Positions 12,497 to 60,432 of a DNA stretch of 64,000 nucleotides are shown one piece after another. How positions within the stretch are numbered: the first letter of the stretch is position 1; each line of letters opens with the position of its first letter. The translations under genes and the position numbers were made by a program. Location: contig JBBRTE010000011.1 in assembly GCA_038244715.1 (NCBI GenBank), positions 75,386 through 139,385 of the forward strand, in the 5' to 3' direction. Below the pieces are notes generated by a model that saw only the letters and a list, made by a program, of their open reading frames with translations, was not told where the DNA came from and searched no databases. This stretch comes from Thermoanaerobaculia bacterium. GTDB taxonomy: Bacteria; Acidobacteriota; Thermoanaerobaculia; Gp7-AA8.

Positions 12497-12934
12497 CTAC
12501 AACCTGGCCAGCTGCTCCTTCGGATACGCCCGCGGATCGACCTTCGGATGCGCTTCCGCGATCCGGCCGCTCTCGTCGATCAGGTACGCGATGCGTCGGG
12601 CGTATTCATCTCTGGGAGAGTCCGCCGCGCCGTACGCGAGACCGATCGTCCGCCCCGTGTCGCAGAGCAGCGGGAAGGGAAAGTCGAACTTCTCCGCGAA
12701 CCGTTTGTTGGCCTCCGCGTCATCGAAGCTGACGCCGAGGATGGTGGTGTTCTTCGCTTCGTACTGCGCCATGAGGTCCCGGAACCCGGAACCCTCGGCC
12801 GTTCAGCCAGGGGTATCGGCCTTCGGATAGAACCAGAGCACGACCTTGCGTCCGCGCAGGTCGCGGAGCGAGACCTCTCTTCCGCGATGATCGGAAACCG
12901 AGAAGTCCGGGGCTTCGTCGCCAACCTTCAACAT
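12497..12934 (-). CDS. selenocysteine-containing peroxiredoxin (Bcp/PrxQ family). An in-frame UGA at 12803-12805 replaces the peroxidatic Cys.
   Basis: Two ORFs in the supplied track (12803-13084 and 12497-12772) share one frame and are separated only by TGA. The joined product reads 'MLKVGDEAPDF...VVLWFYPKADTPG-U-TAEGSGFRDLMAQYEAKNTTILGVSFD...', which has the canonical Bcp active site 'FYPKA.TPGCT' with Sec at the Cys position. Confidence 0.7.
12773..12796 (-). promoter_or_regulatory. candidate bacterial SECIS hairpin downstream of the Prx UGA
   Basis: The mRNA sequence GAGGGUUCCGG-GUU-CCGGGACCUC forms an 8-9 bp stem (with G-U wobbles) and a GU-containing apical loop. The stem begins about 8 nt 3' of the UGA. 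Confidence 0.45.
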
Positions 12935-13002
12935 GCGCCCTCCTCGCAATGACGCCAGCACGAACCGGATCTTTCCAACCAGCGACACGCCGCCATTGTA
13001 GG

Positions 13003-13953
13003 TCAGTGGCGGGGTTTGGCGTGGCATTCGACAGGAGCGGTGCTGGCGTCGGGTGTCGATCCATCGGTCGCGAGGAAACGCCACTCGTAGCCGTGCTGGT
13101 GAAGTGTCATCAACAGCACCCCATGATGCGTGTGATCGAAGAATGCGCTGTTCCGCTTCAGGGAGCCCATCACGCGCAGCTCGGCGCCTCCGGTGCCAGC
13201 GACGAATTCGCGGAGACCGGCCGGCAACCGCGTGCCGGATGCGTCCTGCGGCTCGTACCGCTCGTAGTTGTGATCGTGTCCGTTGAGGACGACGTCGGCG
13301 CCGTGCACCAGCAGCGCATCCCAGAAGCGTCCGGTGCGCCGTCCCTGATCGCGCGGGTCATCGCCATGCTCGCTACCGGAACTGAACAGCGGATGGTGCC
13401 AGTACGCGAGGATGCATGGTCTCGTAGTTTCCCGCAGATCCTTCTCCAGCCAGGCGAGCTGCGTTGCGTTATCCACATGCTCGCTGTTCAGCGAAACGAT
13501 GTGCCAGTTGCGCAGGTCGAAGCTGTACCAGCCGAGGCCCGGCGGCCCGGCACGCGCTCCGAAGTAGCGGTAGTAGCCTCGGGCGCCGAGTGAGTAGTAC
13601 TCGTGATTGCCCGGCGAGGGATGGGTCCGGTCGAGAAACTGTCCCCATGTCGGCTGGTAGAACGCGGCAAACTGACCGCTGGTGCCTCGCAGATACGCGT
13701 TGTCGCCCAAGGTGTAAACCGTGGCCCGCGGGATCCGGACGATGATGGCCGCGGTCGCCGCCGCGTCGGTGAGATAGGAACCATTGGCGATGTCGCCGGC
13801 GCCCGCGAAGAGCACGTCATCCGCTCCCGGATCGTTCACTTCGAATTGCGGCACGGCGTCCGCCGCGGCCAGGAGCGCCTCCGGCGGCGGCCCGGAGGTC
13901 GTGCAGCGAACCGCTACGACGAGCAGGGCAAGAAGCAGCAGTTGGTTCTTCAT
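13003..13953 (-). CDS. secreted calcineurin-like metallophosphoesterase (purple-acid-phosphatase/PhoD-like)
   Basis: Signal peptide 'MKNQLLLLALLVVAV'. Metallophosphoesterase motifs 'GDIANGSY', 'TLGDNAY', 'GNHEY', 'WHHPLFSSG', 'VVLNGHDHNYER'. Confidence 0.7.
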   Translation of the reverse strand: MKNQLLLLALLVVAVRCTTSGPPPEALLAAADAVPQFEVNDPGADDVLFAGAGDIANGSYLTDAAATAAIIVRIPRATVYTLGDNAYLRGTSGQFAAFYQPTWGQFLDRTHPSPGNHEYYSLGARGYYRYFGARAGPPGLGWYSFDLRNWHIVSLNSEHVDNATQLAWLEKDLRETTRPCILAYWHHPLFSSGSEHGDDPRDQGRRTGRFWDALLVHGADVVLNGHDHNYERYEPQDASGTRLPAGLREFVAGTGGAELRVMGSLKRNSAFFDHTHHGVLLMTLHQHGYEWRFLATDGSTPDASTAPVECHAKPRH

Positions 13954-13975
13954 CGATGAATGAGTCCGTGTGGAG

Positions 13976-16900
13976 TCAGCTCTCCACGAGGACGCGCAGC
14001 TGTCTACTGGCCACGGTGAGCATGGCCAGATCGACCGATTGTGCGGCACGGAAGTCGGTCATCATCTGGTCGATCTTCTCGACTTCGCGCGGACGTGCCG
14101 CCAGCCATTTCTCCACCGGTTCGCGTGACCCGTCACTCTCGTTGATGACGCGCGACGCCAGCGTGCTCTGGTAGTGGAAGAGGTCATCAATCACCGCCGC
14201 GACCGCCGCCTTCTGCCAGGGAGTTTCCGCGGCGATCGACGCACCCGCGGTCCGCAGCCGTTCCAGTCCGAACCGCGCCCCGACACTGAAATAGACCTTG
14301 GCCACATCCTCCACCGGCCCACCCTTCCGCGAGAGCCGGACGATGTCGAGCGCGGCCCCCATGACGCCCAGACTGGCGATGCGGTAGGCCACACGCTCCG
14401 GAACGCCGTCCATCTCGAGCTCGCCCTGACGCGCCTTGAGCGACCCGAGGAGGGCGGCCGGGAGGATGTCGTTCAATTTGTCGGAGATCGCTGTGATCGC
14501 CGGGCGGAATTCGCTGACGTACCGCGCGGTGTCGAGCGTCTGGTAGTCGCTGGTGAGCAGCCAGCTCATGGCGCGCTCCAGCAAGCGGCCCACTTCGATC
14601 AGCATTTCGGTCTGCACACGAGCGGGCAGCACATTGTCCTGCCCCTCGATCTCGGACCAGAGGGCGCGAAGGTCGAACGACTCCCGGATGACCGTGAACG
14701 CCCGCGCGATGTCCGCCGTCGGCTTCCCCGTCTCCTCGGTCATCTGCCAGACGTAGGTCGGACGGATGCGATTGATGATGTTGTTCGTGACGTAGCTGGC
14801 GATGATCTCCCGGCGCAGCCGGTGCCGTTCGATCGTGGCGCGATAGGTCTCGCGCAACGGTTTCGGGAAATAGAGCACGAGGTCTTCGACGAGGAGAGGA
14901 TCGTCGGGCAGATCGCTGGCCAGGAGATCGGCGTAGAGGACGATCTTGCTGTAGGCGAGGAGCACGGCCAGCTCCGGACGGGTCAGCCCGACGTGCGCCG
15001 TGTGCCGCTGCGCGATCGTCTCGTCGTCGGGCAGACCTTCCAGTGCGCGATCGAGCCTGCCGGCGCGCTCGAGTGCGCGCATGAAGCGGGCCTGTTCGTC
15101 CAGGACCGACTCGCCGAGCGCCAGCGTGAGAGAGATGGCCTGGGTCTGCTCGTAGTTGTCGCAGAGCACGAGATGGCCGACTTCGGCCGTCATCGACGCG
15201 AGCAGCGTGTTCCGCTGCTCCAGGCCGGCCAGTTCACCGCGTTCGATGGCGTCGTAAAGCAGGACCTTGATGTTGACCTCGTGGTCCGAGGTGTCGACAC
15301 CGGCGGAGTTGTCGATCGCATCGGTGTTGATGTGGCCACCGCCGAGGGCGTACTCGATCCGGCTGCTCTGGGTGAAACCGAGGTTGGCGCCCTCGCCGAC
15401 GACGCGCACGCGCAGCTCCCGTCCGTCGACGCGCAGCGCGTCGTTGGCACGGTCGCGCGCCGCAGCGTGGTCTTCATCGCTGGATTTCACGTACGTGCCG
15501 ATGCCACCCAGCCAGAGCAGGTCCGCACGTGCGCGCAGGATTGCCTTCATCAGGTCTGCCGGTGGGAGCGTCTTCCTGTCGAGATCGAGGATGCGCATCA
15601 CCTCGTTCGAAACAGTGACCGTCTTCGCGCTGCGCTCCAGAACGGCGCCTCCGGGAGAGAGCAGGTCCGTGTTGTAGCCGTTCCAGTTGAGACGCTGATC
15701 GAACATCCGCTGACGCTCGGCCAGACTGACCGCCGGATCAGGATTGGGGTCGAGAAAGATGTGCGAGTGATTGAACGCCGCGATCAGCTTCGTCTGTGGC
15801 GAGAGAAGCATCGCGTTGCCGAAGACATCGCCGGACATGTCGCCGACGCCGACGACCGTGAACGGCTCGCGCTGGATATTCACCCCCAGCTCGCGGAAGT
15901 GGCGCCTGACCGCCTCCCACCCGCCCCGCGCGGTGATGCCCATCGCTTTGTGGTCGTAGCCCGCGCTGCCGCCGGAAGCGAATGCATCGCCGAGCCAGAA
16001 CCCGTATTCGGCAGAGATGGCGTTGGCGATGTCGGAGAACGTCGCGGTGCCTTTGTCCGCGGCCACCACGAGGTATGGATCGTCGGCGTCGCGCCGCACG
16101 ACGTCGCGCGGCGGGATGACGTCAGCGCCGCGCAGGTTGTCGGTGATGTCCAGCATGCCGCGGAGAAGCGTCTGGTATGCCGCCACTCCCTCTTTCTGAA
16201 ACACGGCGCGTTCCGGGGATGGATTCCTGACGACGAATCCGCCCTTCGACCCCATCGGCACGATCACGACGTTCTTGACGTTCTGCGCCTTCATCAGCCC
16301 GAGGATCTCGGTGCGGAAGTCTTCGCGGCGGTCGGACCAGCGGATGCCGCCGCGCGCGACCTTGCCGGCACGGAGGTGGATGCCCTCCATGACCGGTGAA
16401 TACACGGAGATCTCGAACATCGGCCGCGGCAGAGGCAGCTCGCGGATCGATTGCGACTCGAGTTTGAAGGAGAGATACGGTTTGCGATTTCCGGCGTCAT
16501 CGCGCTTGTAGTAGTTCGTGCGCAGCGTCGCTTCGATCAGCGTGAGGAAGATGCGGAGGATGCGATCCTCGTCCGGGTTCTTCACCTGTTCGAGAGCGTC
16601 TTCGACCTGAGCGCGGATCCCGCTGGCCGCCAGGTGCCGGCCGGTCACACCGGTCGAGGCCATGCTGGCTCCGCGCATCGTAGCCGAGCCCAGCGCCGGA
16701 TCGAAGTGCGTCTCGAAGAGCTGGATCAGCATCCGCGCGACCTCCGGATGCGCCGAGAGCGTCTGCTGCACAAGCGCCTCGCTGACATTGACGCCGATCT
16801 GCCGGATGTACTTGCTATACGCACGCAGCACGACCACCTGGTACCACTCGAGCTCGGCCGTGAGTACCAGCCGATTGAAGCCGTCGTTCTCCGCTTCGCG

Positions 16901-18829
16901 ATTCCAGACGCGGACGAAGGCCTCCTGAAACTTTTGTTTGATGGGCGTGAGGTCGTCCTGCATCCCCTCCGCGTTCAGGCTGAAGTCACGGATGCGCACC
17001 GTCGACGCCGCGCCGAACGGATGGACTTCGTACGGCTCCTCGGCAAGCACCTTCAGCCCCATGTTCTCGAGCCGCGGCATGATCTCGGAAAGCGGCACGG
17101 GGGGACCGGAGTGGATGATCTTGCAGTGGAACTGCCGCTCATCGCCCCGGTGGCGGTAGAGGTCGACCACGAGTTTGCCCGTAGCCAGGACCTCTTCGAT
17201 ATGGTCGATGTCGTACATCGCCGCGTCGGCCAGGAATCGCTCCATGTACGCGGCCGAGAAGGCCTTCTTGTAGCGGCGCTGCAGTTCGATCCCCTGTTCC
17301 TCGCCGAAGCGATGACAGAGCGTGTCGAGGAGACGGTCGCCCCAGGTGCGCGCCGCGTCCGACAGAATCGCCTCGATGCGCTTCTCGTCGACTTCGGGGA
17401 TCTGACCGGCGGTCGTGCGGACAACGAAGAGAATGCGCGCCAGCGGCGCGTCGGTCACGTGCTCGTAGACCGCCGTGTCGCGGCCGGCGAACTGCTCCTC
17501 CAGGATCTGCCTCGCCTTCTCTCGGAACTCGGCAGTGTTCTGATCGCGCGGCACGAACACGTAGCACGAGATGAATCGATCGAAGACGTCCTTGCGGGTG
17601 AAGAGTGCCACGCGGTGGCGCTCCTGGAGCAGCAGGATCCCGCGGGCGATGTCGTAGAGCTGCCCATCAGTGATCTGGAAAAACTCGTCGCGGGGAAACG
17701 TCTCCAGGATGTCGACGAGGGCCTTGCCGTTGTGGCTCCGCGGATCGAGGCCGGCACGCTCGATCGTGCGCTTCGCCTTGAGCCGCAGCATCGGGATCTC
17801 CCGCACGCTGCGGCTGTAGGCTGCCGAGGTGAAGAGACCGAGGAAGCGGTCTTCTCCGATGAGATTCCCTTCGTCGTCGTAACGCTTGATCCCGATCCGG
17901 TCGAGCGGCACCGGACGATGAATCGTGCTGCGGCTGTTCGCCTTCGTGATGATCAGCAGATCCTTCGTTCTGGCGTAGTCGCTGAACTCTGCGGTCAGCG
18001 GCGCGGAGCCGCGGGCGGCCGACTCGGCGCGAATCCCGCGAAGGATCCCCAGACCGCTTCCCGAGATGGGAGGCAGGTAGTCCTTCCCCTCACGCGTCTC
18101 GAATCCGTAGCGGCGAAACCCGACCAGGATGAAGTTTCCGTCGTCGAGCCACTGCAGGAATGCCCGCGCTTCGGCCACTTCCTCCTGCGGCATTGGCAGC
18201 GTCGCACGTTCGAGCTCGGCGACTTCCGCCTTGAGTGTGTCGCGCATCACCTGCCAGTCCTTGACCGCGGCCCGTACGTCGGAGAGCACTCGCTCGATGG
18301 CCGCGGAGATCGTCTGCAGCTCGGCGGCGTCGGTTTCCTGGTCCATCTCCAGGTGCATGTACGACTCGACAATCGCGTCCATGGGCGCTTCGTGCGTCGA
18401 TGTCAGCTCCACCCTCCGGCCTCCGGCATTGCGGCGGACGCGGACCACCGGATGCAGCAGGAGGTGGATGTTCCTGGCCAGACGGTTTACCTCGGCGCTG
18501 ACGGAGTCGACGAGGAAGGGCATATCGTCATTCACGATCTCGATGACGGTGTGCTCGATCCCCCATCCATTCGCTTCCACGGAGGGGTTGAACAGCCGGA
18601 TCTTCGGGGCACCGACGTGACGCATCTCGCCGAACTGCCAGAGCGAGAGTGCGGCGCCGAGAAGAGTGTCGAACGAGCTGTAGATGATGTCGTCGGGAGC
18701 GACCAGGGCGAAGAAGCGCCGCACGAAGGCCTCGGCGCTGTCCGCCTGCTCGCTGCTGACACGTTTGTGTGCTTCGGTGGCAAGGCGCTCGACGAGATCT
18801 GCCTTGCGCTGCTCAGGGGTCATGGTCAT
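13976..18829 (-). CDS. gdhB: NAD-specific glutamate dehydrogenase, large (about 1600 aa) GdhB/Bac_GDH type
   Basis: The 1617-aa product has the catalytic core '[41 protein letters not shown]' and the characteristic long N- and C-terminal regions. The start was taken at '[16 protein letters not shown]'. The 120 codons further upstream in the ORF are not protein-like. Confidence 0.85.
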   Translation of the reverse strand: [1617 protein letters not shown]

Positions 18830-18892
18830 GAATCGCGGCTCCTGCAACTGCGGGCGCCGATCATATCGCGGCACTAAACGTCCCGGCACCCC

Positions 18893-19312
18893 GTGAATGC
18901 CTTGAAACGATGGAAAGAAGGCACTGGCGTCGATGGTACTGTTCGTGCCATCACAGAGCGAGAGCGAGAGAACGAATTCATGGCGCCAGACAACAACGAC
19001 AGAGTCCCGACGTCCTCGATCGTCATGAAAGCGATGGACGCAAAGACGTTCATGGAGTTGGAGGTGTTCGTCAAAGACCTGGAGAGCAGGCCGACGGATC
19101 GGCTGCTGCGCGACCTGGGAGTCCTGGTGGGACTTTCCGAGGCGAAGGCGCAGATCATTTCCTACGTGGTGGCCACGAAGTTCCGGCATGCGGGCGCCGA
19201 GGAGCGCAGCGTCATCCTGGACAGCGTGGCCGCGACCTCGGAGAGCCTTCCCGAGGGCGACGACCGCAGCCGAGTCCTGGACGTGCTGAAACGGCTCCGC
19301 GGCGTGCTTTAG
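18893..19312 (+). CDS. hypothetical small protein (the start may be the internal ATG at about 18980)
   Basis: ORF with no recognisable motifs. It is divergent from gdhB. Confidence 0.3.
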   Translation: MNALKRWKEGTGVDGTVRAITERERENEFMAPDNNDRVPTSSIVMKAMDAKTFMELEVFVKDLESRPTDRLLRDLGVLVGLSEAKAQIISYVVATKFRHAGAEERSVILDSVAATSESLPEGDDRSRVLDVLKRLRGVL

Positions 19313-19693
19313 CCCAGGCGCTGCAGGCCGCTAGTCATGTGAGGCTCAGCTTGCGATATTCGCGTTCCCGTGTCGTCGTGCAAGGCAGGACAAAAAAATC
19401 ACGTCGCATTGACTTGAGACTCCGCCAGATTCGGGCCTGCGTGATCGAGATGCGCACGATTTTGTCGAGACGGCCAGGAACCACCCTGCAGGCGTCGTGG
19501 ACGACCGGCGACTCTGACTCAACGATCCACGTCGTTGCCATCAATAGGACCACGCCTGCACCGATCCATGGCAGCGCGTACCTGGCCACGAACGGCGCAA
19601 CTTCCCGACATCGCCTTCGGGCGAAGCTCCGATCACCGAGGAAGACGTGCGCGAGCGACGGCGGCCGACCTGGTCCGAGCACTCCGCGTTTTC

Positions 19694-21433
<1,740 letters not shown>

Positions 21434-21434
21434 G

Positions 21435-21944
21435 TCAGGTCCATTTCGCGGTTCGTTTTTCGAGGAAGGCGGCGAGGCCTTCCTGTGGCTCGCCGGTGGC
21501 GAAGAGATGTGCAAATGCGACGCGCTCGGTGACGTCGCCGCCACGTCCACGAATCAGCGCAGCCGCGGTGTCGAGAGCGAGCGGACTTCGCCCGCCGATC
21601 CAGCCCGCAAGCCACTCTATCGGATCGGCTCCGGAAGGAACAAGTGCGTCCGCCAAACCTTCCCCCACCGCATCGCGCGCCGTCATGGTCGTCCGGCCGA
21701 GCAGGTGCAATCGCGATGCGCGAGCACCGATGCGTCCCACCACAGCGCTCCATGCGTGCGGCGTATCGATCGTGATCGCTGCACGTTCGTCGATCGCCAC
21801 CCAGTCGCAGTGAAGTGCGGCGGCGAGGGGGGCACCGCGTAGATCGTTCGTTGCAACAGCGACCGTCATCTCCCGCCGCATGACCACGTCCTCGACACTT
21901 GCGGAAAGGAGCAGTTCCGGAGTGAGGACCCACACGCTGCTCAT
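21435..21944 (-). CDS. truncated enoyl-CoA hydratase/isomerase (crotonase)-fold protein (169 aa)
   Basis: The C-terminal two-thirds align with the crotonase fold, including the terminal '[14 protein letters not shown]' motif. The N-terminal about 90 aa of a normal crotonase, including the oxyanion hole, are absent. The start overlaps the methyltransferase stop codon (ATGA). Confidence 0.5.
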
Positions 21945-22687: not shown

Positions 22688-22761
22688 TTCAAGTCCTGCA
22701 AATAATGACGAACTCCGCTATCATTGTGCACAAATTGAAATGCATGTTTGAAAGGAACTTC

Positions 22762-24084: not shown

Positions 24085-24106
24085 ACCCCACTCCTATCGA
24101 AATCTC

Positions 24107-24140
24107 AAAACGCCCGGCCACGCCGGGCGTTTTGCTTTTA
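24107..24140 (+). terminator. rho-independent terminator (AAAACGCCCGGCCACGCCGGGCGTTTTGCTTTT)
   Basis: A GC-rich hairpin followed by a T-run, located 23 nt after the stop of the 22762-24084 gene. Confidence 0.6.
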
Positions 24141-24180
24141 TGATCCCTGCTCACAACACCTGCCGTTCGGAAAGGACCTC

Positions 24181-25365: not shown

Positions 25366-25381
25366 GCGGAGCCAGAACGAT

Positions 25382-25410: not shown

Positions 25411-25422
25411 ACAAATTTCGTT

Positions 25423-25498
<76 letters not shown>

Positions 25499-25589: not shown

Positions 25590-26936
<1,347 letters not shown>

Positions 26937-47544: not shown

Positions 47545-47657
47545 CCCGCCGCGCCCCCGGGGGCGGCGGCTGCCGGAAAATCCTGCATTCGCTGGGCACG
47601 ATCGGCATCTTCGCCGTTCTCCTGGCCATCGCCGGCGGCTGGTTCTTCCTGCGCGCC

Positions 47658-48632: not shown

Positions 48633-48697
48633 CTGCTCGACCTGCACCTCCGTGCTATCCTCCGGACACCGCAAAAAAACCCGGGGGTCCCACGAGT

Positions 48698-50566: not shown

Positions 50567-50578
50567 CCGGAACCGGTG

Positions 50579-52396
50579 CTACGGCACCTCCTTCCAGAAG
50601 ACGCGGTGTAGCTGGAGGCCGAGGTCGCGAGGGTCGCCTCCGGGATGCGTATGCGAAAGGTTGATGACGTGATCGACTGACAGCACGAGTTCGTCCGGCG
50701 ACGTGCTGCGCGAGGTCACGATGTAGAACCGTTCTACGTCTGACGACTTCGGGACGAACTCGTCGATCGGCGCACCGTCGAAAATGACGGTGACCTTCGG
50801 CGCCGGCTCGCTCGCCAGCGGAAGCGTGACGCGAAATCCGAGTTGCGCTCGCCGCCCCAGCGGTGCCAGCGTCGTGTGGCCCTCCCTTCCCATCCATCGC
50901 CACCGCTCACCCTCGTCGCCCACTTCCTCGCCGTACCAGCCCTGACCTGGCTTCACCCACCCCGCGACCGGCACGACGGAGCTCTCGAAATACCGCCTGT
51001 TGAACACGGCCCACAGCGGCTTGTGCGGCCGGTGGAAGTTCATCGCCTGGGCTGATGAATTCGGCTGGTCAGCGACGAACACAGCGTTCCGGTCCGCAGG
51101 AACGGTCGACGGGTCGAACGCATCGGGCACAGGGATGATCGTGTAGTCCGTCAGGAAGTACGCGACGAACGGCTCCATGCCGCCCGCTGCATAGACCTTC
51201 CCTCCCCGCGGAACGTTCTGTTGAATCCATCGCACGGCGAGCACTGGCGGTGATTCCGTCATTCGGACCTGCCAGATCCCAGGCCACACCCAAAGGACGT
51301 AGCGTCCGATGACGAGAGCGGCGAAGAGCGCCTGCGCCACTGCAGCGAGGCGCTCCCGTGAACCTGTACGAGACCGCGAAGTGAGGAAGCACGCGGCCAC
51401 GTCCATGCCGTCCGCGGCCAGCAGCACATTCGCCGCGATGTAGCCGAGCGACAGCCGGCTGATGCCTGTCGGATTCAGAAGAAACCAGGCCAGCAGGAAG
51501 TTCGGCTCGAACGCCAGCACCGCGTCGAGGTGGGCGCGCCGCGGACGAGCCAATGCCAGCAGCGTGAACGCAAACATCACCGTCGATGCGGCCCGAGACT
51601 CGAATGGATCAAAGAGAAAGTTGCGCAACAGGAACCGCATCGGAATGCGCTCCGGATTCAACGCGCCGTCGACCGTGGCCACGTAATGCTGATGCCACTT
51701 CGTCGCAGAGATGAAGTCCCCGACCCCCGTCAGTTCTGCAGCGATTCCATACCCCGCCAAGACCAGGACGACGATGAGCACAGTCCCTGTGATCGCATCC
51801 CGCCGAAGCCCCGAGCGCCATCGGCGCCACGACGCAACCATCCAGGGCCAGGCCAGCAGCACGTTCTGCGCACGCACCAGCATCGTCGCAGCGAAGAAAA
51901 CGCAACCCAGGATGTACGTCCACCGGCTGCGATCGTCGCGGAGAAGAAACGCGACGGCCGCCAGAGCCGTCACCAGCGCCAGCGTATCGGTGAATCCCGT
52001 ACCGCCCCAGTACCAGACGTTCGGCAAAAAGCTGAAGAGCAGTGCCGCGGTGAGGCATGTACGAAATCGGAAGCGCAGCGACCGCGCCAGCGCGACCATC
52101 GCGGGAAAGAGGAAGATCGATGCTCCGAAACTGACCGCGCGCAGAGCATGGAAGTCGTCGTGGAGAAACAGCCGAACGAGTTTCGCAAGAGCGAAGAAGA
52201 GGGGAAACCCGGGCGGATGCGGATGGTGCAGCGCGACGTCATAGTGCTGCAGCGCCGCAACGAACAACGCTTCGTCCCAGTCCCACATCGAATGGGAGAC
52301 GGCGACGACGCGCGTCAGGGCCACGAGACTGGCGAGAACGCCTACCGCCAGGCGCTGTTGCGATGTCAGCGGCGCGACCACGCCGCCCTGCATCAT
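50579..52396 (-). CDS. GT-C glycosyltransferase of the PMT/ArnT family (GT39/GT83-like; PMT_2 domain)
   Basis: At least 11 TM helices. The first periplasmic loop is 'SMWDWDEALFVAALQHY' (DE motif). The start could alternatively be at 52441. Confidence 0.7.
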   Translation of the reverse strand: MMQGGVVAPLTSQQRLAVGVLASLVALTRVVAVSHSMWDWDEALFVAALQHYDVALHHPHPPGFPLFFALAKLVRLFLHDDFHALRAVSFGASIFLFPAMVALARSLRFRFRTCLTAALLFSFLPNVWYWGGTGFTDTLALVTALAAVAFLLRDDRSRWTYILGCVFFAATMLVRAQNVLLAWPWMVASWRRWRSGLRRDAITGTVLIVVLVLAGYGIAAELTGVGDFISATKWHQHYVATVDGALNPERIPMRFLLRNFLFDPFESRAASTVMFAFTLLALARPRRAHLDAVLAFEPNFLLAWFLLNPTGISRLSLGYIAANVLLAADGMDVAACFLTSRSRTGSRERLAAVAQALFAALVIGRYVLWVWPGIWQVRMTESPPVLAVRWIQQNVPRGGKVYAAGGMEPFVAYFLTDYTIIPVPDAFDPSTVPADRNAVFVADQPNSSAQAMNFHRPHKPLWAVFNRRYFESSVVPVAGWVKPGQGWYGEEVGDEGERWRWMGREGHTTLAPLGRRAQLGFRVTLPLASEPAPKVTVIFDGAPIDEFVPKSSDVERFYIVTSRSTSPDELVLSVDHVINLSHTHPGGDPRDLGLQLHRVFWKEVP

Positions 52397-52455
52397 CCAC
52401 TGCTGACCACCGGCATCCGTCAAGCGGCACCATTCTCGCAAAATTCGTAGTGATC

Positions 52456-53505
52456 ATGCCGGGAAAGGGGGTCCGACGCCGCTGGAACCTCGACCTTCAC
52501 GGCATCCGCCGCGAAGGTAGCAAAGACTCAGAGTTCACCTATTGCAGCTCCCTAGGCGCCTCCATCGAGGACGAGAAGACGCTGGCCCGCATCCGCAAGC
52601 TTGGGATCCCGCCAGCCTGGCAGGACGTGCGCATCGCCCGCGGTGACGCTGCGCCACTGCAGGCGGTCGGCATCGACAAGAAGGGCCGCACGCAGTACCT
52701 CTATCACGCTCGCTTCCGGGCTCATCAGGAAGAGGAGAAGTTCAAGCGCGTCGTCGAGTTTGGCGAATCCCTTCCCGCTCTGAGGCGCCGCGTCCGCGCC
52801 GACCTCAAACGTCCTGACCTCGACCGCGACCACGTTCTCGCGGCCATCGTCCGCCTCATCGATCAAGGGTTCTTCCGCGTCGGTAACGACAAGAGTGCGC
52901 AGTCCGAGGCGACGTACGGATTGACAACGATCCGGAGCAAACATGTAACGCTCGAAGGATCCGTGATCCTCTTCGACTATGTCGGCAAGTGGAGAAAGAC
53001 GCAGAAGCGTGCGATCGAGGATGCAGAGGTCGCAACCGTCGTTCGCGACCTTCGCGAGCTGGGAGAAGCGGAGCTCTTCGCGTTCATCGACAACGGCAAA
53101 GTCCGCGATGTGAAGGACCGGCATGTGAACGACTACATCCAGTCGATCATCAGCAAGAACTTCACCGCGAAAGACTTTCGTACCTGGGCAGGCACCCTGC
53201 TCTGCTCCATCGCCCTCGGCATGGAAGGTCAGGGCTCGAGCAAGACCGAGCGGAAGCGTAAGATCAAGCTGGCGGTGCAGGCGACGGCCGAACGGCTGGG
53301 AAACACCCCGGCGGTCTGCCGATCGTCCTACATCTGTCCCCGCCTGCTGGACGAGTACATGGACGGCAAGCCGTTCGAGATGCTGCGCAAGCATCACAAG
53401 GGCTCGCCCGTCGTTCGGGTCGGCCTTTCGAAGGAAGAACGCGCACTCCTCAAGTTTCTCCGCGAGACGATCGCCGACCGCCGGCGCCGGCCGCGCGCCG
53501 CATAG
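52456..53505 (+). CDS. DNA topoisomerase IB (poxvirus-like bacterial TopIB)
   Basis: 'IRKLGIPPAWQDVRIA...IDKKGRTQYLYHARF...ATYGLTTI...RDVKDRHVNDY...FTAKDFRTWAGT...TPAVCRSSYI' gives the TopIB catalytic Arg/Lys/His and Tyr-containing C-terminus. The size is 349 aa. Confidence 0.8.
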   Translation: MPGKGVRRRWNLDLHGIRREGSKDSEFTYCSSLGASIEDEKTLARIRKLGIPPAWQDVRIARGDAAPLQAVGIDKKGRTQYLYHARFRAHQEEEKFKRVVEFGESLPALRRRVRADLKRPDLDRDHVLAAIVRLIDQGFFRVGNDKSAQSEATYGLTTIRSKHVTLEGSVILFDYVGKWRKTQKRAIEDAEVATVVRDLRELGEAELFAFIDNGKVRDVKDRHVNDYIQSIISKNFTAKDFRTWAGTLLCSIALGMEGQGSSKTERKRKIKLAVQATAERLGNTPAVCRSSYICPRLLDEYMDGKPFEMLRKHHKGSPVVRVGLSKEERALLKFLRETIADRRRRPRAA

Positions 53506-53792
53506 CGCGCTAGGACACTCGTCCAGCGTGCAGGTCAGACGCGGGTGCTCCGGATCGGTGAGGTCCATCTTGTCCCACGGAATGCGAGACGGTTTGGACT
53601 CGAGTTGCGTCACCCGCGACCGCCTGGTTCTGGCCGGAGCAGGCAGTAAGGAAACGCATGAGGCTAAACAGGCTCCATTGCCGCATCGTCCGCGGTCCCA
53701 GTGCATAAGCCGGCCGAGCCGTTTGAAGTTCCTCGATCCCAGGCTCGAAAACGGACTAATATGGCCTCTCGATTGCTTATTGTAAGTTCCAG

Positions 53793-54488
53793 ATGAATCC
53801 AAATAACCGAATTGCCGCCTTCGTGGCCGTCATCGCCTTCACCTTCGTGGTCCCGGCAGCCAGGGCCGCCATCGCGCAGGCCGTCACCTTCGACGAGAAA
53901 GTCGACAATTCGGCCGCGATCATCCTCGGCAAGTGCATGAGGACGGAAGCGAAGTTCGACCCCACGGGCCGCTGGATCGTGACGTACGCCACCTTCAACG
54001 TCGAGCAGTCGATGAAGGGAAACGCGGCCGGGCAGCTGACCGTGGTCACTCCGGGCGGCAGCGTCAACGGCATTCATCAGGAAACGATCGGCGTTCCGGT
54101 CTTTCGCGAGGGGGACGAGCATGTCGTCTTCCTCCGCAACACCCGCCTCGGACCCTCCCCGCTCTACTTCGACCAGGGGACCTACAACGTCGTGGAGGGC
54201 GAGCGCGGCGAGAAGATGATCGTGCCGATGCCGTCGAACGTCATGCACATCGACACGCAGCGCGCGATGGTCGTCGCTCCGTCAGACGAACCGAAGACGC
54301 TCGACGCGTTCAGGGTGGCGGTGGCCGATTCGATGAAGGGAAGCGCACGACGCGTGCAGATGAGCGCGATGGGCACCTCCGGCAGGCCACAGAAGTCGCT
54401 TCGGTCGGTTCTGGGCGAGAACAAACTGCTGATCGCTCTGGCCGCGATTGGGATCGCGATCGCGGGCTGGCAGCTACGGCGAGGGTAA
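53793..54488 (+). CDS. hypothetical secreted protein with a C-terminal TM anchor
   Basis: Signal peptide 'MNPNNRIAAFVAVIAFTFVVPAARA'. C-terminal 'LLIALAAIGIAIAGWQL'. The upstream region is AT-richer. Confidence 0.4.
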   Translation: MNPNNRIAAFVAVIAFTFVVPAARAAIAQAVTFDEKVDNSAAIILGKCMRTEAKFDPTGRWIVTYATFNVEQSMKGNAAGQLTVVTPGGSVNGIHQETIGVPVFREGDEHVVFLRNTRLGPSPLYFDQGTYNVVEGERGEKMIVPMPSNVMHIDTQRAMVVAPSDEPKTLDAFRVAVADSMKGSARRVQMSAMGTSGRPQKSLRSVLGENKLLIALAAIGIAIAGWQLRRG

Positions 54489-55109
54489 CTCTGCAACTTC
54501 CCCCAGGATCGGCTGAGCGCGAAGCCACGCCTTCGCATCGTCGAGATTTCTGACGTCGCGAAGGCTGACACGCCTCGTGGATCCGTCGTGGAGCGAAAAC
54601 TCCACGGCGTCGCCAGCGATACGAAACGTCCTCACATGCTTCAGGGCAATCCGCTTTCTCGGCAGGATGAGCCTCAAACGCGCCGTGAAGGTTTCATCCT
54701 CGACCTTTAGATAGCGGAACGATTGCAACCGGACCTCGAAGAAGGCGAAGAGCAGCAGGATCACCGGCGGCACGAACGATACGATTCGGAAGGACAGATG
54801 ATGGGGCTCGTAGAGTCGATGAATGGCCTCGACAAGCGCCATCGCCGCCCCGGCGATCTCGATCCACGCCAAGCGCTCGTGTCCCATTCCACGGGAGTGA
54901 CGAAGCCGTTCGCGAATGGCTGCCACGATGAGTGCCGCGCTGGCCGCGAGCTCCAGCCCGGGGAGAATCACATCGTGACTGTTTGGCGCGCGCAAATGGC
55001 CGGATGCCGCCAGGGCGAGCAGCAACGCTGCCGCGACATGCTGCAACGTCTGGATCCTCTTCATCCGCTCGGCGCGGCGCGATTGCACGGGAAAAAGCGT
55101 GGCTGGCAT
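54474..55109 (-). CDS. hypothetical membrane protein with a C-terminal PH-like (bPH) region
   Basis: Three or four TM helices. The C-terminal 'FRYLKVEDETFTARLRLILPRKRIALKHVRTFRIAGDAVEFSLHDGSTRRV' resembles bacterial PH-like domains. Confidence 0.35.
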   Translation of the reverse strand: MPATLFPVQSRRAERMKRIQTLQHVAAALLLALAASGHLRAPNSHDVILPGLELAASAALIVAAIRERLRHSRGMGHERLAWIEIAGAAMALVEAIHRLYEPHHLSFRIVSFVPPVILLLFAFFEVRLQSFRYLKVEDETFTARLRLILPRKRIALKHVRTFRIAGDAVEFSLHDGSTRRVSLRDVRNLDDAKAWLRAQPILGEVAELPSP

Positions 55110-55150
55110 TGGGAAAGCGATTGTAGCGGCCCGTCGACACGCGAGTTGGA

Positions 55151-55901
55151 TTGATTCTGCGCATGGTCAAATCCGCCCCGCGTGCCGATGTCCGCCGGGC
55201 GCTTGATCAGGACCAACTCGTCCTCTCCTATCAACCGATTCACGAGCTGGTTTCGGGCCGCATCATCAGCGCCGAGGCTCTGCTGCGTTCCCGCCGGGAA
55301 ACCGGCGAGATCCGCAGCGCGGTGCCACTGACGCAGGCCGCGGAGGAAGGTCCCGATCTCTTTCGACTCGATTCCTGGACGCAAGATCAACATTGAGATC
55401 ACGGAAGTCAGCTATATCGAGTATCCCAAACAGACGCGGCACGTCCTCGATGAAATGAAGGAGCTGGGCGTTCAGCTCTGGCTCGACGACTTCGGCACCG
55501 GTCACTCGTCGGTCGAGCACCTCCTGCGCTTCCCGCTCGACGGTTTGAAGGTTCCGGCGACGTTCATCGATCCCCTCTCTTTCGACAAGCGAGCCCGGGC
55601 GATCACGAAGTCGATGATCGATCTCGCGCACGATCTCGGAATGAAGGTCATTGCGGAGGGCATCGAACATCGCGAGCAGCTGGAGTTCCTGCGGACGATG
55701 GGATGTGACTACATCCAGGGGTTCCTCAATAGCAGACCGATGCCCCTGGAGGATTTCCAGAAGGTCCTGGATACGCAATCCGGCGTAACCGCGAAACCAC
55801 GCGGCCGGGAGACAGATCCCGTCAGGCCGTCTTCTTCAGCGGCTCCGAGGGGCAGTAGAAATCGCGGCGCCGGTCGAGGTCGTGCATCACGTTCTTCTTG
55901 A
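55151..55901 (+). pseudogene. stand-alone EAL-domain c-di-GMP phosphodiesterase gene interrupted by a frameshift near 55380-55395
   Basis: ORF 55151-55396 encodes the EAL N-terminus ('LVLSYQPIHELVSGRIISAEALLR'). After a frame change, 'KINIEITEVSYIEYPK' (the EITE catalytic block) and ORF 55455-55901 ('LWLDDFGTGHSS...VIAEGIEHREQLEFLRTMGCDYIQG') complete the domain. Confidence 0.6.
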
Positions 55902-56517
55902 ACTGGTCCGCACCACCGTTGCGCATCATCTCGTCGACGTACGCGGCGATGTCGACGATCTCCAGCCGCATGCGCACCGTCCGGAAGATGCTCGGCACGC
56001 GTCCCGGAATCTGCACGTGATGCAGTCCGCCGCTGTAGGCGATCAGCATCCTTCCCTCTTTCATCGCCATGAGAATGTCGGCGATGCCGCCGCGCACCGT
56101 CATGGGATTCCCCTGCAGGTCCAGCCCGTTCGCCCGCTTCATCCGCCCCTCGGGCGCGATGATGACCATTGAATGGGGATCGATCGCGCGGAGCAGTTCA
56201 AACCACGTGTGGTCACGCTCCCGCGTGATGGCGATGACGTGATGCGCCACGAACTTGAAGATCATTCCGACGAGCGGACGTCCGGTGGTCTTGTCCGCCG
56301 CCGGCACGACGCCGTGCGCCGCAAGACGCCAGATGAAATTCGGTGGAACGCCACCGAGGAAGACGGGTTCGAACAGGCTGGTGTGATTGAGGAAGGCGAC
56401 CAACCGGATGTCACGCCACGGTTTCGGCGGAACGTCGCCGACCCAGGCAAAATCATACCGGTAGAAGATCCTGCTGACGTACTTGAGCGTCGTCAGCATC
56501 GAGAAAACCATCAGGCT
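55822..56517 (-). CDS. lysophospholipid acyltransferase (PlsC/LPLAT family)-like protein
   Basis: 'VAFLNHTSLFEPVFLGG' and 'IIAPEGRM' correspond to acyltransferase motifs I and III. The start was chosen at 'MVFSMLTTL' to avoid overlap with the DUF72 gene. The longer upstream ORF extension is low-complexity Ser/Arg junk. Confidence 0.5.
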   Translation of the reverse strand, partial: SLMVFSMLTTLKYVSRIFYRYDFAWVGDVPPKPWRDIRLVAFLNHTSLFEPVFLGGVPPNFIWRLAAHGVVPAADKTTGRPLVGMIFKFVAHHVIAITRERDHTWFELLRAIDPHSMVIIAPEGRMKRANGLDLQGNPMTVRGGIADILMAMKEGRMLIAYSGGLHHVQIPGRVPSIFRTVRMRLEIVDIAAYVDEMMRNGGADQFKKNVMHDLDRRRDFYCPSEPLKKTA

Positions 56518-56566
56518 CCGCAGCAGGGACACGAGTGCGAAGGGTAGCGAAGGGTGAGTCGCGCCG

Positions 56567-57271
56567 TCAACGCAGTTGCGCACGGAACTGGACAGCGAAG
56601 CGAGGGCCATTCCCTTCGTCTTCATGTTTGAAGAAAACGTAGGCGTCGTTCCAGCTCTGCCGCTGCACCCGCTCGGCCCATGCCTCGAGCTCGCCCGGCG
56701 CGTATTCGGTGCGTCGCAAACGCATGTAGCCCCACGAGGCGGTGGGGACGACGAGCGCCTCGACATCCGTGACTTCATCGGTGTCCGCGGCGCAGAGGGC
56801 GATGTCGCGGTCGCGGAGAATCGAATAGACGTCGTCATCGAACCACGACGCGTGACGGAACTCGAACGCCACCCTCCGCTGCTCCGGAAGGGACGCGACG
56901 AACTCGTGGAGCAGTGCAGCATCCTTCCGCAGGTAGGGCGGGAGCTGGAAGAGGATCGGCCCGAGTTTGCTCTCGAGAACCGATGCGGCCTCGAAGAGGA
57001 ACACGACGTCCGCATCGGCACCCGCCAGCTTCTTCTGATGCGTGATCCGTTGAGGCGCCTTCAGGACGAACGTGAACCCCTCGGGCACCTGCTCGCCCCA
57101 CTTCGCGACCATCTTCGCGTCCGGCATCCGGTAGAACGTGTTGTTGATCTCGACCGAGTCGAAGCGCTCGCCGTAGTACGGGAGCATCTTCGTCGCCGGC
57201 AGATCCTCCGGATAGAACGTCCCCTTCCATTCTTTATAGCTGTAGCCGCTGGTGCCGACTCGGATGCGCAT
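56567..57271 (-). CDS. DUF72 (UPF0759) family protein
   Basis: 'IRVGTSGYSYKEWKGTFYPEDLP...YGERFDSVEINNTFYRMP...GFTFVLKAPQRITH' is the canonical DUF72 signature. Confidence 0.8.
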   Translation of the reverse strand: MRIRVGTSGYSYKEWKGTFYPEDLPATKMLPYYGERFDSVEINNTFYRMPDAKMVAKWGEQVPEGFTFVLKAPQRITHQKKLAGADADVVFLFEAASVLESKLGPILFQLPPYLRKDAALLHEFVASLPEQRRVAFEFRHASWFDDDVYSILRDRDIALCAADTDEVTDVEALVVPTASWGYMRLRRTEYAPGELEAWAERVQRQSWNDAYVFFKHEDEGNGPRFAVQFRAQLR

Positions 57272-57328
57272 GGGTGACTATCCTGCCACAGGCGTCTTCC
57301 CGCGAGCACGCGCGATACACTTCCCGCC

Positions 57329-58060
57329 GTGGGCGATGCCTCCGAGTTTTCCTTCCCCGTCCGCGGCGTTCTGAAGGCCTACCGGTGGCGACGGATCGAT
57401 CCCATCCCCTGGACACCGCTACGGAAACCGCTGGCCGAGGCGACGGTGGCAGTCGTTTCCACCGCAGGGCTGGTATTGCCGGACCAGGCTCCATTCGATG
57501 AATCGATCCTGGGCGGTGACAGCAGCTTTCGTGTCATCGGCGGCCAGACGGATATCGCAACGCTGATCGATACGCACCGCAGCAGGAGCTTCGACCACGC
57601 GGGAATTCGCTCCGATCCCAATCTGGCGTTTCCACTCGATCGCGTGCGGGAGATGGCCGCGGAGCAGCGGATCGGCAGCGTCAGCAAGAACCATCTCTCA
57701 TTCATGGGATCGATCCCGGCACCGGGAAGGCTGATGCGACACTCGGCCCCGGTTGCAGCGCAACACCTGGTCGATTGCGGGGTGGACGTCGCGCTCCTAG
57801 TTCCGGTGTGACCCATGTGCAATCAGACGGTCTGTCTGATCGCCGCAGAGCTCGAGCGACGGGGCATCACCACCGTCTGCCTCATGCTTCTTCGCGAGGT
57901 CGCGGAGAAAGTCCGCCCACCTCGGGCGCTTTTCGTCCCGTTCCCGCACGGATACCCGCTCGGTAAACCCAACGACCCCGGCACGCAGCGACGCGTCGTC
58001 GAGGCGGCACTGGCGCTGACGGAGATGGATTCCATGGCGCCGCTGCTCGTTGATCTGTGA
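57329..58060 (+). CDS. small GrdB/PrdB-family selenoprotein (glycine/betaine/sarcosine/D-proline reductase protein-B-like) with Sec in a UxxCxxC motif. The in-frame UGA is at 57809-57811.
   Basis: ORFs 57329-57811 and 57815-58060 share a frame and are joined by TGA. The joined product is '...DCGVDVALLVPV-U-PMCNQTVCLIAAELERRGITTVCLML...'. This parallels the GrdB/PrdB Sec region, recalled from memory as '...VILTST-U-GTCTRCGATMVKEIERAGIPVV' and not checked. Confidence 0.65.
57822..57840 (+). promoter_or_regulatory. candidate bacterial SECIS hairpin (AUCAGAC-GGUCU-GUCUGAU) starting 11 nt 3' of the UGA
   Basis: Perfect 7-bp stem with a 5-nt apical loop containing GGU, and canonical spacing from the UGA. 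Confidence 0.5.
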
Positions 58061-58102
58061 GCGGCAAGGATCTGTGAGCGGCAACGGGTCAGGACCGTTC
58101 TC

Positions 58103-58987
58103 TCACACCTTCTTCTCGGCACGAACCTCGAGCATCCCCTTGCGCCGCCGCACGTCGAAGCAGCGAGCGGGATAGGTTGTCGGGCCGTTGATCACGTGAC
58201 CATCCTCGAGGGCCAACTCGGACCCGTGCCAGGGGCACTGGATGGCGTCGCCGACGATCTTCCCTTCGTTGAGAGGGCCGCCGAGGTGGGGACAGGTGTT
58301 CGTGAGTGCAAAGTTGCCCGTGCCGTGTTTGACGAGGACGATCGCCGTCTCCTCGATGTCCACTCGCATCGGTGTGTCCTCGGCGAGTTTCGCCTCCTCG
58401 ATGGCGCCGTGGAAATGCGCCGGCTGTCCGGCGCCGGCAGTCGCGGTGTGATCGACCCCGACCTGCTCGCCGAAGACCAGATGACCACCGAGATATGCAG
58501 ACGCACCGGAGATGGCGAAGCCGAGCATCGAGAGCGCCACTGCCTTCGAGCGCTGCTTCTTCCGGCGGCGCATGATCAGTGACGACGCGTAGAGTGCGGT
58601 CGCGCCGACGTTGAGAAGCCCGTGGAGGAGTCCGATCGTCTTTGCCCGGCCATCCGTCTCCGACCAGTCCGTCGCGCCGGTGACCGCCGCGCCGACGGCA
58701 CCGGCGAGCCCGAGGGCGATCGCGACATCAGCACCTCCCTCGAGATGGGAACGGCCGCTGAGTGTGCCAATCGCGTCGAGCACCATGGCGACCGTCCAAG
58801 CACCGACGGGGATGTCGGTCAGCACGGGATGCAACGGATGACCGAGCCAGGTGCCGTGAAGCGCGTTCTTGATCGCCTGACCCGCTTCGCCAGGAAACAG
58901 CTGGTGGATCGCCTGGGAAATGGGATCGGCGGCGGCCTCGAGCCAATCCTGCTTCGCAATCGCGTCGAAAATCACTTCATTGCTCAT
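58103..58987 (-). CDS. DUF2231-like membrane domain fused to a Rieske [2Fe-2S] domain
   Basis: N-terminal 'HPLHPVLTDIPVGAW' membrane domain. The C-terminal Rieske boxes are 'CPHLGGPL' and 'CPWHGSEL'. The start is at 'MSNEVIFD'. Confidence 0.7.
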   Translation of the reverse strand: MSNEVIFDAIAKQDWLEAAADPISQAIHQLFPGEAGQAIKNALHGTWLGHPLHPVLTDIPVGAWTVAMVLDAIGTLSGRSHLEGGADVAIALGLAGAVGAAVTGATDWSETDGRAKTIGLLHGLLNVGATALYASSLIMRRRKKQRSKAVALSMLGFAISGASAYLGGHLVFGEQVGVDHTATAGAGQPAHFHGAIEEAKLAEDTPMRVDIEETAIVLVKHGTGNFALTNTCPHLGGPLNEGKIVGDAIQCPWHGSELALEDGHVINGPTTYPARCFDVRRRKGMLEVRAEKKV

Positions 58988-59045
58988 GGGAGACGCGAGC
59001 GCAAGAGCGATGCCGGGGGGAACTCGTCGAAGAACCCTTTCGCGT

Positions 59046-59828
59046 CTACCTCTGGTGCGTACCGCAGAAATACGTCGTTCTGCCGAACACGACCGTGCGC
59101 TGGATCGTGCCGCCGCAGCGCGGACAACGTTCGCCTTCCTCGCGGTGCGGGATGAGGTAGCGGGACGGATAGTCGCCACCGCCGGACTTGAACGTGATCG
59201 CTTCCCTGAGGATGGCGCGCATGCCGGCATGGATCGCTTTCACCTCGACATCCGACAGCGTATCGACCGCACGGCGGGGATGGATCGACGCACGGTAGAG
59301 CGTCTCATCGACGTAGAGATTCCCGAGCCCGGCGATGATCTCCTGGGACATCAACAGGGATTTCACGGCGCCGCGCCGTCCAGCCACGATCCGGCGAAAT
59401 CGGGAGAGGCGGAAGCCGGGATCGAGCGGGTCGGGGCCGAGGTGATGCTCGAGGATGAAGTGGTCGGGATCGGGTGTGAGGTCGACGACACCGAAGAGGC
59501 GCATATCGTCGTACGCCAGGTGCGCGCCATTCTGGAATTCGAACACGACCCGCGCGAAGCGGGGCTGGTCCTCCGCACTTCGGTAGTACAAGAGATCGCC
59601 GCTCATGCCGAAGTGCAGGTGCAGCCACGCCGCTCCGGCGGCCACGAACAGATGCTTACCGTGGCGGCGGGTCTCCGTGAACATCGTACCGGTCATCGCC
59701 TTTGAAAACAGCGTCTTGCGGACGCCGAGGATGCGCTCGTCGAGCACGCGGACACGGCGAACGGGCTGGTGCAGAGCATGATCCGCGAAGTAGCGGCGGT
59801 AGAGCTCGACCTCCGGAAGCTCCGGCAT
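59046..59828 (-). CDS. mutM: formamidopyrimidine-DNA glycosylase / Nei family (Fpg-like)
   Basis: N-terminal 'MPELPEVE' with catalytic Pro2/Glu3. H2TH region. C-terminal zinc finger 'CPRCGGTIQRTVVFGRTTYFCGTHQ'. Confidence 0.75.
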   Translation of the reverse strand: MPELPEVELYRRYFADHALHQPVRRVRVLDERILGVRKTLFSKAMTGTMFTETRRHGKHLFVAAGAAWLHLHFGMSGDLLYYRSAEDQPRFARVVFEFQNGAHLAYDDMRLFGVVDLTPDPDHFILEHHLGPDPLDPGFRLSRFRRIVAGRRGAVKSLLMSQEIIAGLGNLYVDETLYRASIHPRRAVDTLSDVEVKAIHAGMRAILREAITFKSGGGDYPSRYLIPHREEGERCPRCGGTIQRTVVFGRTTYFCGTHQR

Positions 59829-59874
59829 GGTTGCCAAGTGTACGATGCGGAAAATTCAAAGCGAGGAAAAACGT

Positions 59875-60432
59875 ATGGCGCGCGTTGCTGATGCGGAAGT
59901 GAGCCAACTCGATCGATCCATCCAGGCAGTCCTCGACGCGCAGGCGAAGCAGTGGGGAGCACCGCTGCTGAATCATCTCGTCTACGCGCGCCGCCCCTCG
60001 ATCTTCAAGGGCGTGCGGATGATGTGGAGTGGTCTGGGCACGTCGGGGCTGATCGACGGACGGCTGGCCGCCCTGGTCAACCGGCGCGTCGCCTTTCTGA
60101 ACGGTTGCGAGTTCTGACAGGACATCAACGCTGCGGTCGGCAGCGCACTGGGAATCGCGGATGAAAAGCTGTTGTCCCTGGCGGACTGGCGGTCGTCGCC
60201 CCTGTTCGACGACCTCGAGCAGCTCGTGCTGGAGTTCGCAGACGCGATGACGATCACCGGAAGCGACGTTTCGGACGCGCTGTTTGCGCGGATTCGGGAA
60301 CGCTTCGATGACGATACGATCGTCGAGCTGACAGAGATCGTGGCGTGGGAAAACGCCTCGTCGAAATTCAATCGGGCTCTCAGGATTCCGTCGCAGAACC
60401 TGTGGCGGCGGGAAGCTACGGCGAAGGATTAG
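59875..60432 (+). CDS. AhpD-like / carboxymuconolactone decarboxylase-family selenoprotein with a CxxU redox motif. The in-frame UGA is at 60115-60117.
   Basis: ORFs 59827-60117 and 60172-60432 share a frame and are joined by TGA. The product is '...RVAFLNGCEF-U-QDINAAVGSALGI...'. This matches the AhpD 'NGCxxCxxxH' core with Sec at the second Cys. The start was chosen at 'MARVAD', which has the RBS GAGGAAAAA. The longer ORF would overlap the fpg start. Confidence 0.65.
60130..60144 (+). promoter_or_regulatory. candidate bacterial SECIS hairpin (GCUGC-GGUCG-GCAGC) 12 nt 3' of the UGA
   Basis: 5-bp GC-rich stem with a GGUCG apical loop. It could extend with flanking pairs. Confidence 0.45.

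Follow-up and report, generated by a model that had tools for sequence, protein, structure and literature searches.

Three probable selenoprotein genes with SECIS-type hairpins in a Thermoanaerobaculia contig

The apical loop of the selenocysteine insertion sequence (SECIS) of Escherichia coli fdhF is GGUC, with G23 and U24. Bacterial elements of this type (E. coli fdhF, Moorella fdhA, and the bSECISearch model; Zhang & Gladyshev 2005) are hairpins within the coding region, located just 3′ of an in-frame UGA, with a short G+C-rich stem and an apical loop that presents GU ~20 nucleotides (nt) from the UGA. Peroxiredoxins (Prx) with a TxxU motif (U denoting selenocysteine, Sec), proline reductase PrdB with UxxC (pfam07355), and AhpD-like/CMD proteins with CxxU were among the most abundant selenoproteins in the Sargasso Sea 2005 and Global Ocean Sampling (GOS) 2008 surveys (PMC1088965, PMC2398784), and all three are listed with these motifs in a table of a 2026 review (PMC13188914). 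Here we analyse a 64,000-nt stretch of DNA from a Thermoanaerobaculia bacterium (GCA_038244715.1, contig JBBRTE010000011.1, positions 75,386–139,385; the whole stretch is hereafter denoted the window), which very probably carries three genuine Sec-encoding genes with SECIS-type hairpins, each having UGA in place of the redox-active Cys of its family. The three families have been known as selenoproteins for ~20 years; the window genes add members to them and no new family.

A first-pass annotation of the window had proposed three in-frame UGAs in thiol-redox families (Prx, GrdB-like, and AhpD-like). All three could be located, and each family assignment is supported by a Pfam match above its cut-off. 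The genes, their in-frame TGA codons, and the hairpins which follow them are:

12497–12934, minus strand: Bcp/PrxQ-type peroxiredoxin gene, 145 codons including putative Sec44; ATG at 12934 after GGAGG, TAG stop at 12499–12497.
12803–12805 (read 12805–12803), minus strand: in-frame TGA (putative Sec) of the peroxiredoxin gene, at the peroxidatic position of the PxxxTxxC/U motif.
12774–12794, minus strand: peroxiredoxin SECIS-type hairpin, 9 bp stem with a GUU triloop, or 8 bp stem with loop GGUUC.
57329–58060, plus strand: orphan PrdB/GrdB-like gene, 243 codons including putative Sec161; GTG start, U-P-M-C motif.
57809–57811, plus strand: in-frame TGA (putative Sec) of the PrdB/GrdB-like gene, in the UxxC motif.
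57822–57840, plus strand: PrdB-like SECIS-type hairpin, 7 bp stem, loop GGUCU.
59875–60432, plus strand: AhpD/CMD-like (YciW-related) gene, 185 codons including putative Sec81; ATG at 59875 after GAGGA, C-E-F-U motif.
60115–60117, plus strand: in-frame TGA (putative Sec) of the AhpD/CMD-like gene, in the CxxU motif.
60129–60145, plus strand: AhpD-like SECIS-type hairpin, 6 bp stem, loop GGUCG.

In all three genes the TGA lies within or next to the region matched by the family models, and models and homologues alike run on past it. The peroxiredoxin frame reads …VVLWFYPKADTPG-TGA-TAEGSGFRD…, i.e. with FYPKADTPG before the TGA, and its match to Pfam AhpC-TSA (PF00578; 118.9 bits, cut-off 26) spans the codon; homologues have TPGC aligned to PKADTPG-TGA of the window. 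The PrdB-like frame, …DVALLVPV-TGA-PMCNQTVC…, matches Pfam GRDB (PF07355) with 31 bits (cut-off 22), the match stopping at residue 158, three residues before U161. The AhpD-like frame, …AFLNGCEF-TGA-QDINAAVGS…, scores 28.7 bits against Pfam CMD (PF02627; cut-off 23), its CxxU motif being C-E-F-U; with U replaced by C, it matches NCBIfam NF053654 (‘YciW-related (seleno)protein’) over model positions 1–179 of 179 with 308.7 bits (cut-off 310), a shortfall of 1.3 bits that is plausibly attributable to the U to C substitution. The G+C content of the window is ~63%, and its real genes have the usual pattern of G+C-rich third codon positions (GC3). Proteins of the source contig (145,032 bp) share clusters of more than 90% identity with proteins from Thermoanaerobaculia metagenome-assembled genomes. 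The AhpD-like and PrdB-like genes are close neighbours, separated by 2.3 kb, and this pair is syntenic in three relatives.

With respect to family, the peroxiredoxin resembles known Sec-containing Prx (TxxU, PF00578) in that Sec would take the place of the peroxidatic Cys of PxxxTxxC. Unlike the 2-Cys PrxU of Eubacterium acidaminophilum, it is BCP/PrxQ-type, and reaches only 43 bits with NF040737; against the Bcp equivalog NF006960 it scores 100.3 bits (U replaced by C), below the cut-off of 140, and is thus a family-level member and not a certified equivalog. The AhpD-like protein has the CMD fold family, the CxxU motif, and the end-to-end NF053654 match in common with AhpD-like/CMD selenoproteins, which have been known since 2005.

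The hairpins are, with loops in square brackets, GGGUUCCG[GGUUC]CGGGACCU for the peroxiredoxin (starting +8 nt from the UGA), AUCAGAC[GGUCU]GUCUGAU for the PrdB-like gene (+10 nt), and CGCUGC[GGUCG]GCAGCG for the AhpD-like gene (+11 nt); their loops start 16, 17, and 17 nt past the UGA, respectively. In the peroxiredoxin hairpin, minimum-free-energy folding tightens the loop to the GUU triloop. The loop sequences are exactly those first stated in the earlier annotation, whose outer coordinates (12773 and 60144) correspond to the outer limits of the first and the last hairpin. Of the spacings that it gave (8, 11, and 12 nt), the first stands as it is, while the others hold only if the outermost pair of stems two and three is left uncounted, being otherwise 10 and 11 nt. 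Hairpins of this kind are rare near TGA in the window: on both strands, only 15 of 1708 TGA trinucleotides (0.9%), the three candidates included, are followed, 6–16 nt downstream, by a stem of 5 bp or more whose loop starts with GGU, and a looser definition admits 53 of 1708 (3.1%). The corresponding chance that all three candidate TGAs have such a hairpin is ~7e-7 (~3e-5 with the looser definition). Given this rarity, chance is a poor explanation, as the first-pass annotation had argued.

The comparison with relatives is most extensive for the PrdB-like gene. A scan of GTDB (one genome per species) gave 418 PrdB-like relatives, the best matching the window at 74%; the 80 nearest (loci L003–L082), which were analysed, include Thermoanaerobaculia and further Acidobacteriota, as well as Verrucomicrobiota, Binatia, Myxococcota, Desulfobacterales, Gemmatimonadota, and Brocadiaceae. 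At each of the 79 locatable sites (from L003–L082, L001, and the window) this codon is TGA, with a conserved peptide after it. The hairpin is in register at all 79 sites, with 97.6% of cells paired across 74 distinct sequences; five of nine pairs show compensatory changes, and none of 500 shuffles attains the observed value. In one covarying pair, the third base of an Asn codon, a synonymous position, is matched to the first position of a Val/Ile codon; without selection on the RNA, this pattern is hard to account for. A second, apparently partial PrdB-like copy is present ~4 kb downstream in one locus (L008:10663 region, a Binatia metagenome-assembled genome (MAG)); it comprises the C-terminal part only and keeps the TGA and PMCNQ.

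For the peroxiredoxin, we compared the 79 nearest metagenome relatives having the motif (loci L083–L162), where the codon is TGA in 73 and TGC in six, and the downstream peptide is conserved. The hairpin has 95.7% of cells paired over 65 distinct orthologue sequences, with pair 17–27 changed from C-G to G-C in 20. Most TGA forms fold at −13 to −25 kcal/mol, whereas −3 to −7 kcal/mol is all that five of the six TGC forms reach (the other has −13.3); the usual hairpin is lost in these Cys forms. In two TGA outliers (~−7.6 kcal/mol; L141:385–426 and L154:804–845) the usual hairpin is replaced by a more distal one, with stem GGAUUC/GAAUCC or UUGGGUUC/GAAUCCAA and loop CGUGAUN; the nearest Cys forms (L143, L144, and L160) have no hairpin whatever. 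Five residues past the putative Sec, the window protein has Ser (TCC, 12788–12790) where Cys-form Bcp has its resolving Cys (UTAEGS versus CTAEGC); the 73 Sec-form relatives have S here in 47 cases, C in 15, R in five, T in four, K in one, and I in one. This Ser/Cys codon is part of the SECIS stem, where the TCC to TGC change is offset by a compensatory G to C change in the opposite arm.

The AhpD-like codon is TGA at 14 of 15 loci (the window counted) and TGC at one, and the peptide downstream is again conserved. The stem GCUGC/GCAGC is present in all 14 Sec forms, and its Ala codon is GCT in every one of them, although GCT accounts for only 7.7% of the Ala codons in window genes. The Cys form lacks the loop GU, having CAUGG instead of CGUGG. 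Conservation of the hairpins in orthologues carrying Sec had been set beforehand as a test that could refute the proposal, and they are kept in all three families.

What the hairpins have in common is geometry, not sequence. A GU at positions 21–23, counted from the U of the UGA, is invariant in all three family alignments, which bears out the earlier claim of conserved loop G/U nucleotides; the more specific GGUY loop does not survive the comparison, since PrdB-like and AhpD-like orthologues alternate GGUC and CGUG, and the peroxiredoxin loops are GGGU(U/A)CC. A covariance model of the kind envisaged in the first-pass annotation as a way of scanning for more such genes was built from the PrdB-like and AhpD-like hairpins; it scored 54.1 and 38.5 bits at its own window sites, missed the peroxiredoxin, and found nothing new. 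This model is dominated by family-specific coding sequence and hence is no generic SECIS detector, and its blindness to the third hairpin points to the same shared geometry. No Rfam family fits any of the hairpins at E-values up to 10. The window hairpins are like the bacterial SECIS elements outlined above in lying within the coding region just 3′ of the in-frame UGA and in their short G+C-rich stems and apical loop GU; two of the three also have the GGUC loop of fdhF. They are unlike them in that the loop GU is 1–2 nt nearer the UGA than G23/U24 of E. coli fdhF, and in that no bulged U, as in the prototype bacterial SECIS, was identified in the window hairpins.

The prediction that automated annotation would yield six fragment open reading frames (ORFs) is largely borne out: in public gene calls the PrdB-like gene appears as 160- and 81-residue products and the AhpD-like gene as 80- and 104-residue products, while the peroxiredoxin is represented by a 91-residue C-terminal fragment. 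Approximately 95 of the 120 best PrdB-like database matches are 160-residue proteins terminating exactly at the TGA; the other ~25 are full-length, mostly with PVCPMCNQ, i.e. with Cys aligned with the TGA. Many AhpD-like database matches are likewise half-length proteins of ~100 residues. Full-length JGI homologues of all three families have W at the site, where the DNA is TGA and where no full translation is possible under genetic code 11. Such W calls in JGI/IMG (L170–L172; P0169–P0193, P0293, P0298, P0021, and P0067) include, for example, NGCEFWQD, TPGWT, and PVWPMC.

These W calls bear on a reassigned genetic code, in which UGA would be a sense codon for Trp (code 4) or Gly (code 25) and the hairpins incidental; as JGI calls them in relatives, the TGAs do give full-length proteins. 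The calls stem, however, from short contigs of ~1 kb whose underlying DNA is TGA, and the TGAs coincide with the catalytic Cys of homologues, not with Trp or Gly. Moreover, TGA is the commonest stop in the window, ending 23 of the 46 other genes, and occurs internally in none of the 46; a reassigned code is thereby excluded, and we give it practically no weight. The W-bearing JGI homologues are, on the evidence of their sequences, Sec forms called with the wrong code. It could also be supposed that the genes are pseudogenes, or that the TGAs are sequencing or assembly errors, with the fragments being the true (dead) products, given that the source is a metagenome-assembled contig and that gene callers report fragments. 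However, TGA recurs at the same codon in dozens of separately made assemblies that span several phyla, and both the frame and the peptide after it are conserved; the locus is also reproduced in an independent Logan assembly, that of run SRR19962014, in which exact-protein matches led to two short contigs (3.0 and 5.3 kb). This conservation across assemblies effectively refutes the idea, the probability of which we consider negligible.

Somewhat less remote, yet still improbable, is SelB-type decoding that inserts Cys instead of Sec, either through a selC* tRNA-Cys with a SelB* or as facultative use of Cys under selenium scarcity, such that the products would not be obligate selenoproteins. Nothing in the sequence specifies the inserted amino acid, and certain lineages of anaerobic bacteria are described as having a selC* tRNA-Cys together with a second SelB (PMC7609411). 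That system is reported, however, in Firmicutes, Thermodesulfobacteria, Nitrospirae, and Proteobacteria, and not in Acidobacteria (PMC7609411); no selC*-type tRNA or factor is visible in the window or related loci, and all three families are recognised selenoprotein families. Several observations weigh against three Sec-encoding genes with SECIS-type hairpins. No compensatory change was seen in the AhpD-like hairpin among the 15 loci, its stem is coded by a conserved Ala-Ala-Val-Gly-Ser peptide, and the sole Cys form retains the stem. The folding-energy z-scores of the three window hairpins (−2.4, −2.2, and −1.0) are modest and by themselves weak evidence. In addition, neither the window nor ~1.17 Mb of related loci contains selA, selB, selD, or tRNA-Sec, as searched by tblastn with E. 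coli SelA, SelB, and SelD and by ARAGORN; this absence is uninformative, linkage of the Sec machinery to selenoprotein genes not being expected.

The G+C-rich hairpin inside each coding sequence offers its loop GU 21–23 nt from the U of the UGA. If the three genes are indeed decoded with Sec, SelB carrying Sec-tRNA(Sec) would bind the hairpin loop and deliver selenocysteine to the ribosome once the UGA enters the A site, and translation would then proceed through the C-terminal part, which is conserved in each protein. The predicted products have a TxxU motif with a peroxidatic selenol, and UxxC and CxxU motifs that would act as selenenyl-sulfide redox pairs. The sequence comparisons show the codons, the hairpins, the family membership, the correspondence of Cys and Sec, and conservation or covariation among relatives; for this organism we infer that SelB binds, that Sec is inserted, and that selA, selB, selC, and selD lie in other parts of the genome.

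The PrdB-like protein resembles PrdB/GrdB in its length (~240 residues), in covering nearly the whole PrdB model, in the same placement of Sec in UxxC, and in having mostly Sec and not Cys at this position. Its score with the NCBIfam PrdB model TIGR04483, however, is 117 bits (model positions 19–224 of 238), far short of the 300 bits set for the equivalog. The genes around it in the window encode DUF72, a Rieske/DUF2231 protein, and Fpg, with no prdA, prdC, or grd gene nearby; no search for PrdA was made in related loci. Beyond close relatives we found no conserved partner gene. The DUF72 gene of the window (56567–57271, minus strand) is divergent from the PrdB-like gene with a 57 bp gap, and by tblastn a DUF72 gene, the only recurrent neighbour, is upstream in only 8 of 77 loci (L003, L007, L011, L014, L019, L033, L036, and L051), all from close relatives; the DUF72 partner that a first ORF clustering had seemed to give in 43 loci was spurious, arising from long antisense ORFs of the kind found in high-GC DNA. 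The AlphaFold model of a Cys homologue of the PrdB-like protein (P0002; model md77b9af9ae4d) is confident (predicted local distance difference test score, pLDDT, 92.4), but no PDB relatives were found by phmmer with the protein or, at E ≤0.001, by Foldseek with the P0002 model, and the GRDB/PrdB fold appears to be without a solved representative in the PDB copies searched. The missed PrdB threshold, the absence of prd/grd neighbours and of a conserved partner, and the absence of a structural relative together suggest that the protein is probably a stand-alone UxxC redox protein and not a Stickland reductase. The function of environmental ‘PrdB’ selenoproteins has been uncertain since the first reports. 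More speculatively, and with rather less confidence than we would need to propose it outright, the PrdB-like proteins may constitute a distinct, near-always-Sec UxxC selenoenzyme, widespread in soil and sediment bacteria, which is not a proline reductase, a reading favoured by the TGA at all 79 sites, the 418 GTDB relatives, and the lack of a conserved partner gene and of a solved structure or fold neighbour; separately, and equally tentatively, the Thermoanaerobaculia lineage may be a selenoprotein-rich branch of Acidobacteriota.

With regard to the latter, the three genes in 64 kb had led the first-pass annotation to suggest a selenoprotein-rich genome. The published threshold for this description is at least six selenoprotein genes (PMC5029168); in one published case from Acidobacteriota, 6.8 Mb contain three known selenoprotein genes (PMC12013277), and the phylum is currently outside those counted as selenoprotein-rich. 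We found no fourth selenoprotein in the window, in that no other TGA-terminated gene is followed by a hairpin and a credible coding continuation. Two ORFs were considered and rejected. The first, of 90 residues (60463–60735, minus strand), has only a weak hairpin at its TGA stop, and the long in-frame extension past this stop runs on the strand opposite the AhpD-like gene and has a non-coding look; the second, an EAL fragment (55455–55901), has several stops ahead of it rather than one lone TGA. When the flanks of related loci (~1.17 Mb) were scanned for a SECIS plus a coding continuation, only one further convincing candidate outside the target families emerged. It lies on the minus strand of locus L022, from an Acidobacteriota MAG, not far from the PrdB-like gene there (TGA at index 11708, counted on the reverse complement), and encodes a ResA/TlpA-like thioredoxin-fold protein with VVLLSFWNPT-TGA-GGCLVELP (UxxC) and a hairpin downstream.

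Some neighbouring genes merit description in their own right. The 90-residue ORF, which lies between the AhpD-like and TPR-AIM24 genes, has no Pfam match and is called as a gene in an independent Logan contig (L002); its sequence (…ISRAELIRALIEAA…) suggests a ribbon-helix-helix-type regulator. The EAL ORF (plus strand, 148 residues) matches the last 94 EAL positions only, and looks like the remnant of a truncated c-di-GMP phosphodiesterase. The longest ORF of the DUF2231-Rieske protein (58103–59230, minus strand, 375 residues) overlaps the end of fpg (59046–59837, minus strand) by ~185 nt; its true start is probably further downstream, as in the 294-residue Logan call in L001. Directly upstream of the metallophosphoesterase and peroxiredoxin genes lies a gene (13976–19189, minus strand) for a 1737-residue NAD-specific glutamate dehydrogenase (Bac_GDH, with all eight domains).

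The families, their motifs, and the logic of SECIS function are already established, and the understanding of selenocysteine biology is unchanged by these genes; what they offer is a fix of the annotation. Public gene calls split them or use the wrong genetic code, leaving 160-residue stubs, halves of ~100 residues, or W at the position of Sec, an error shared by hundreds of related entries. With it corrected, three antioxidant/redox enzymes would be restored to this organism and its lineage marked as Sec-decoding.

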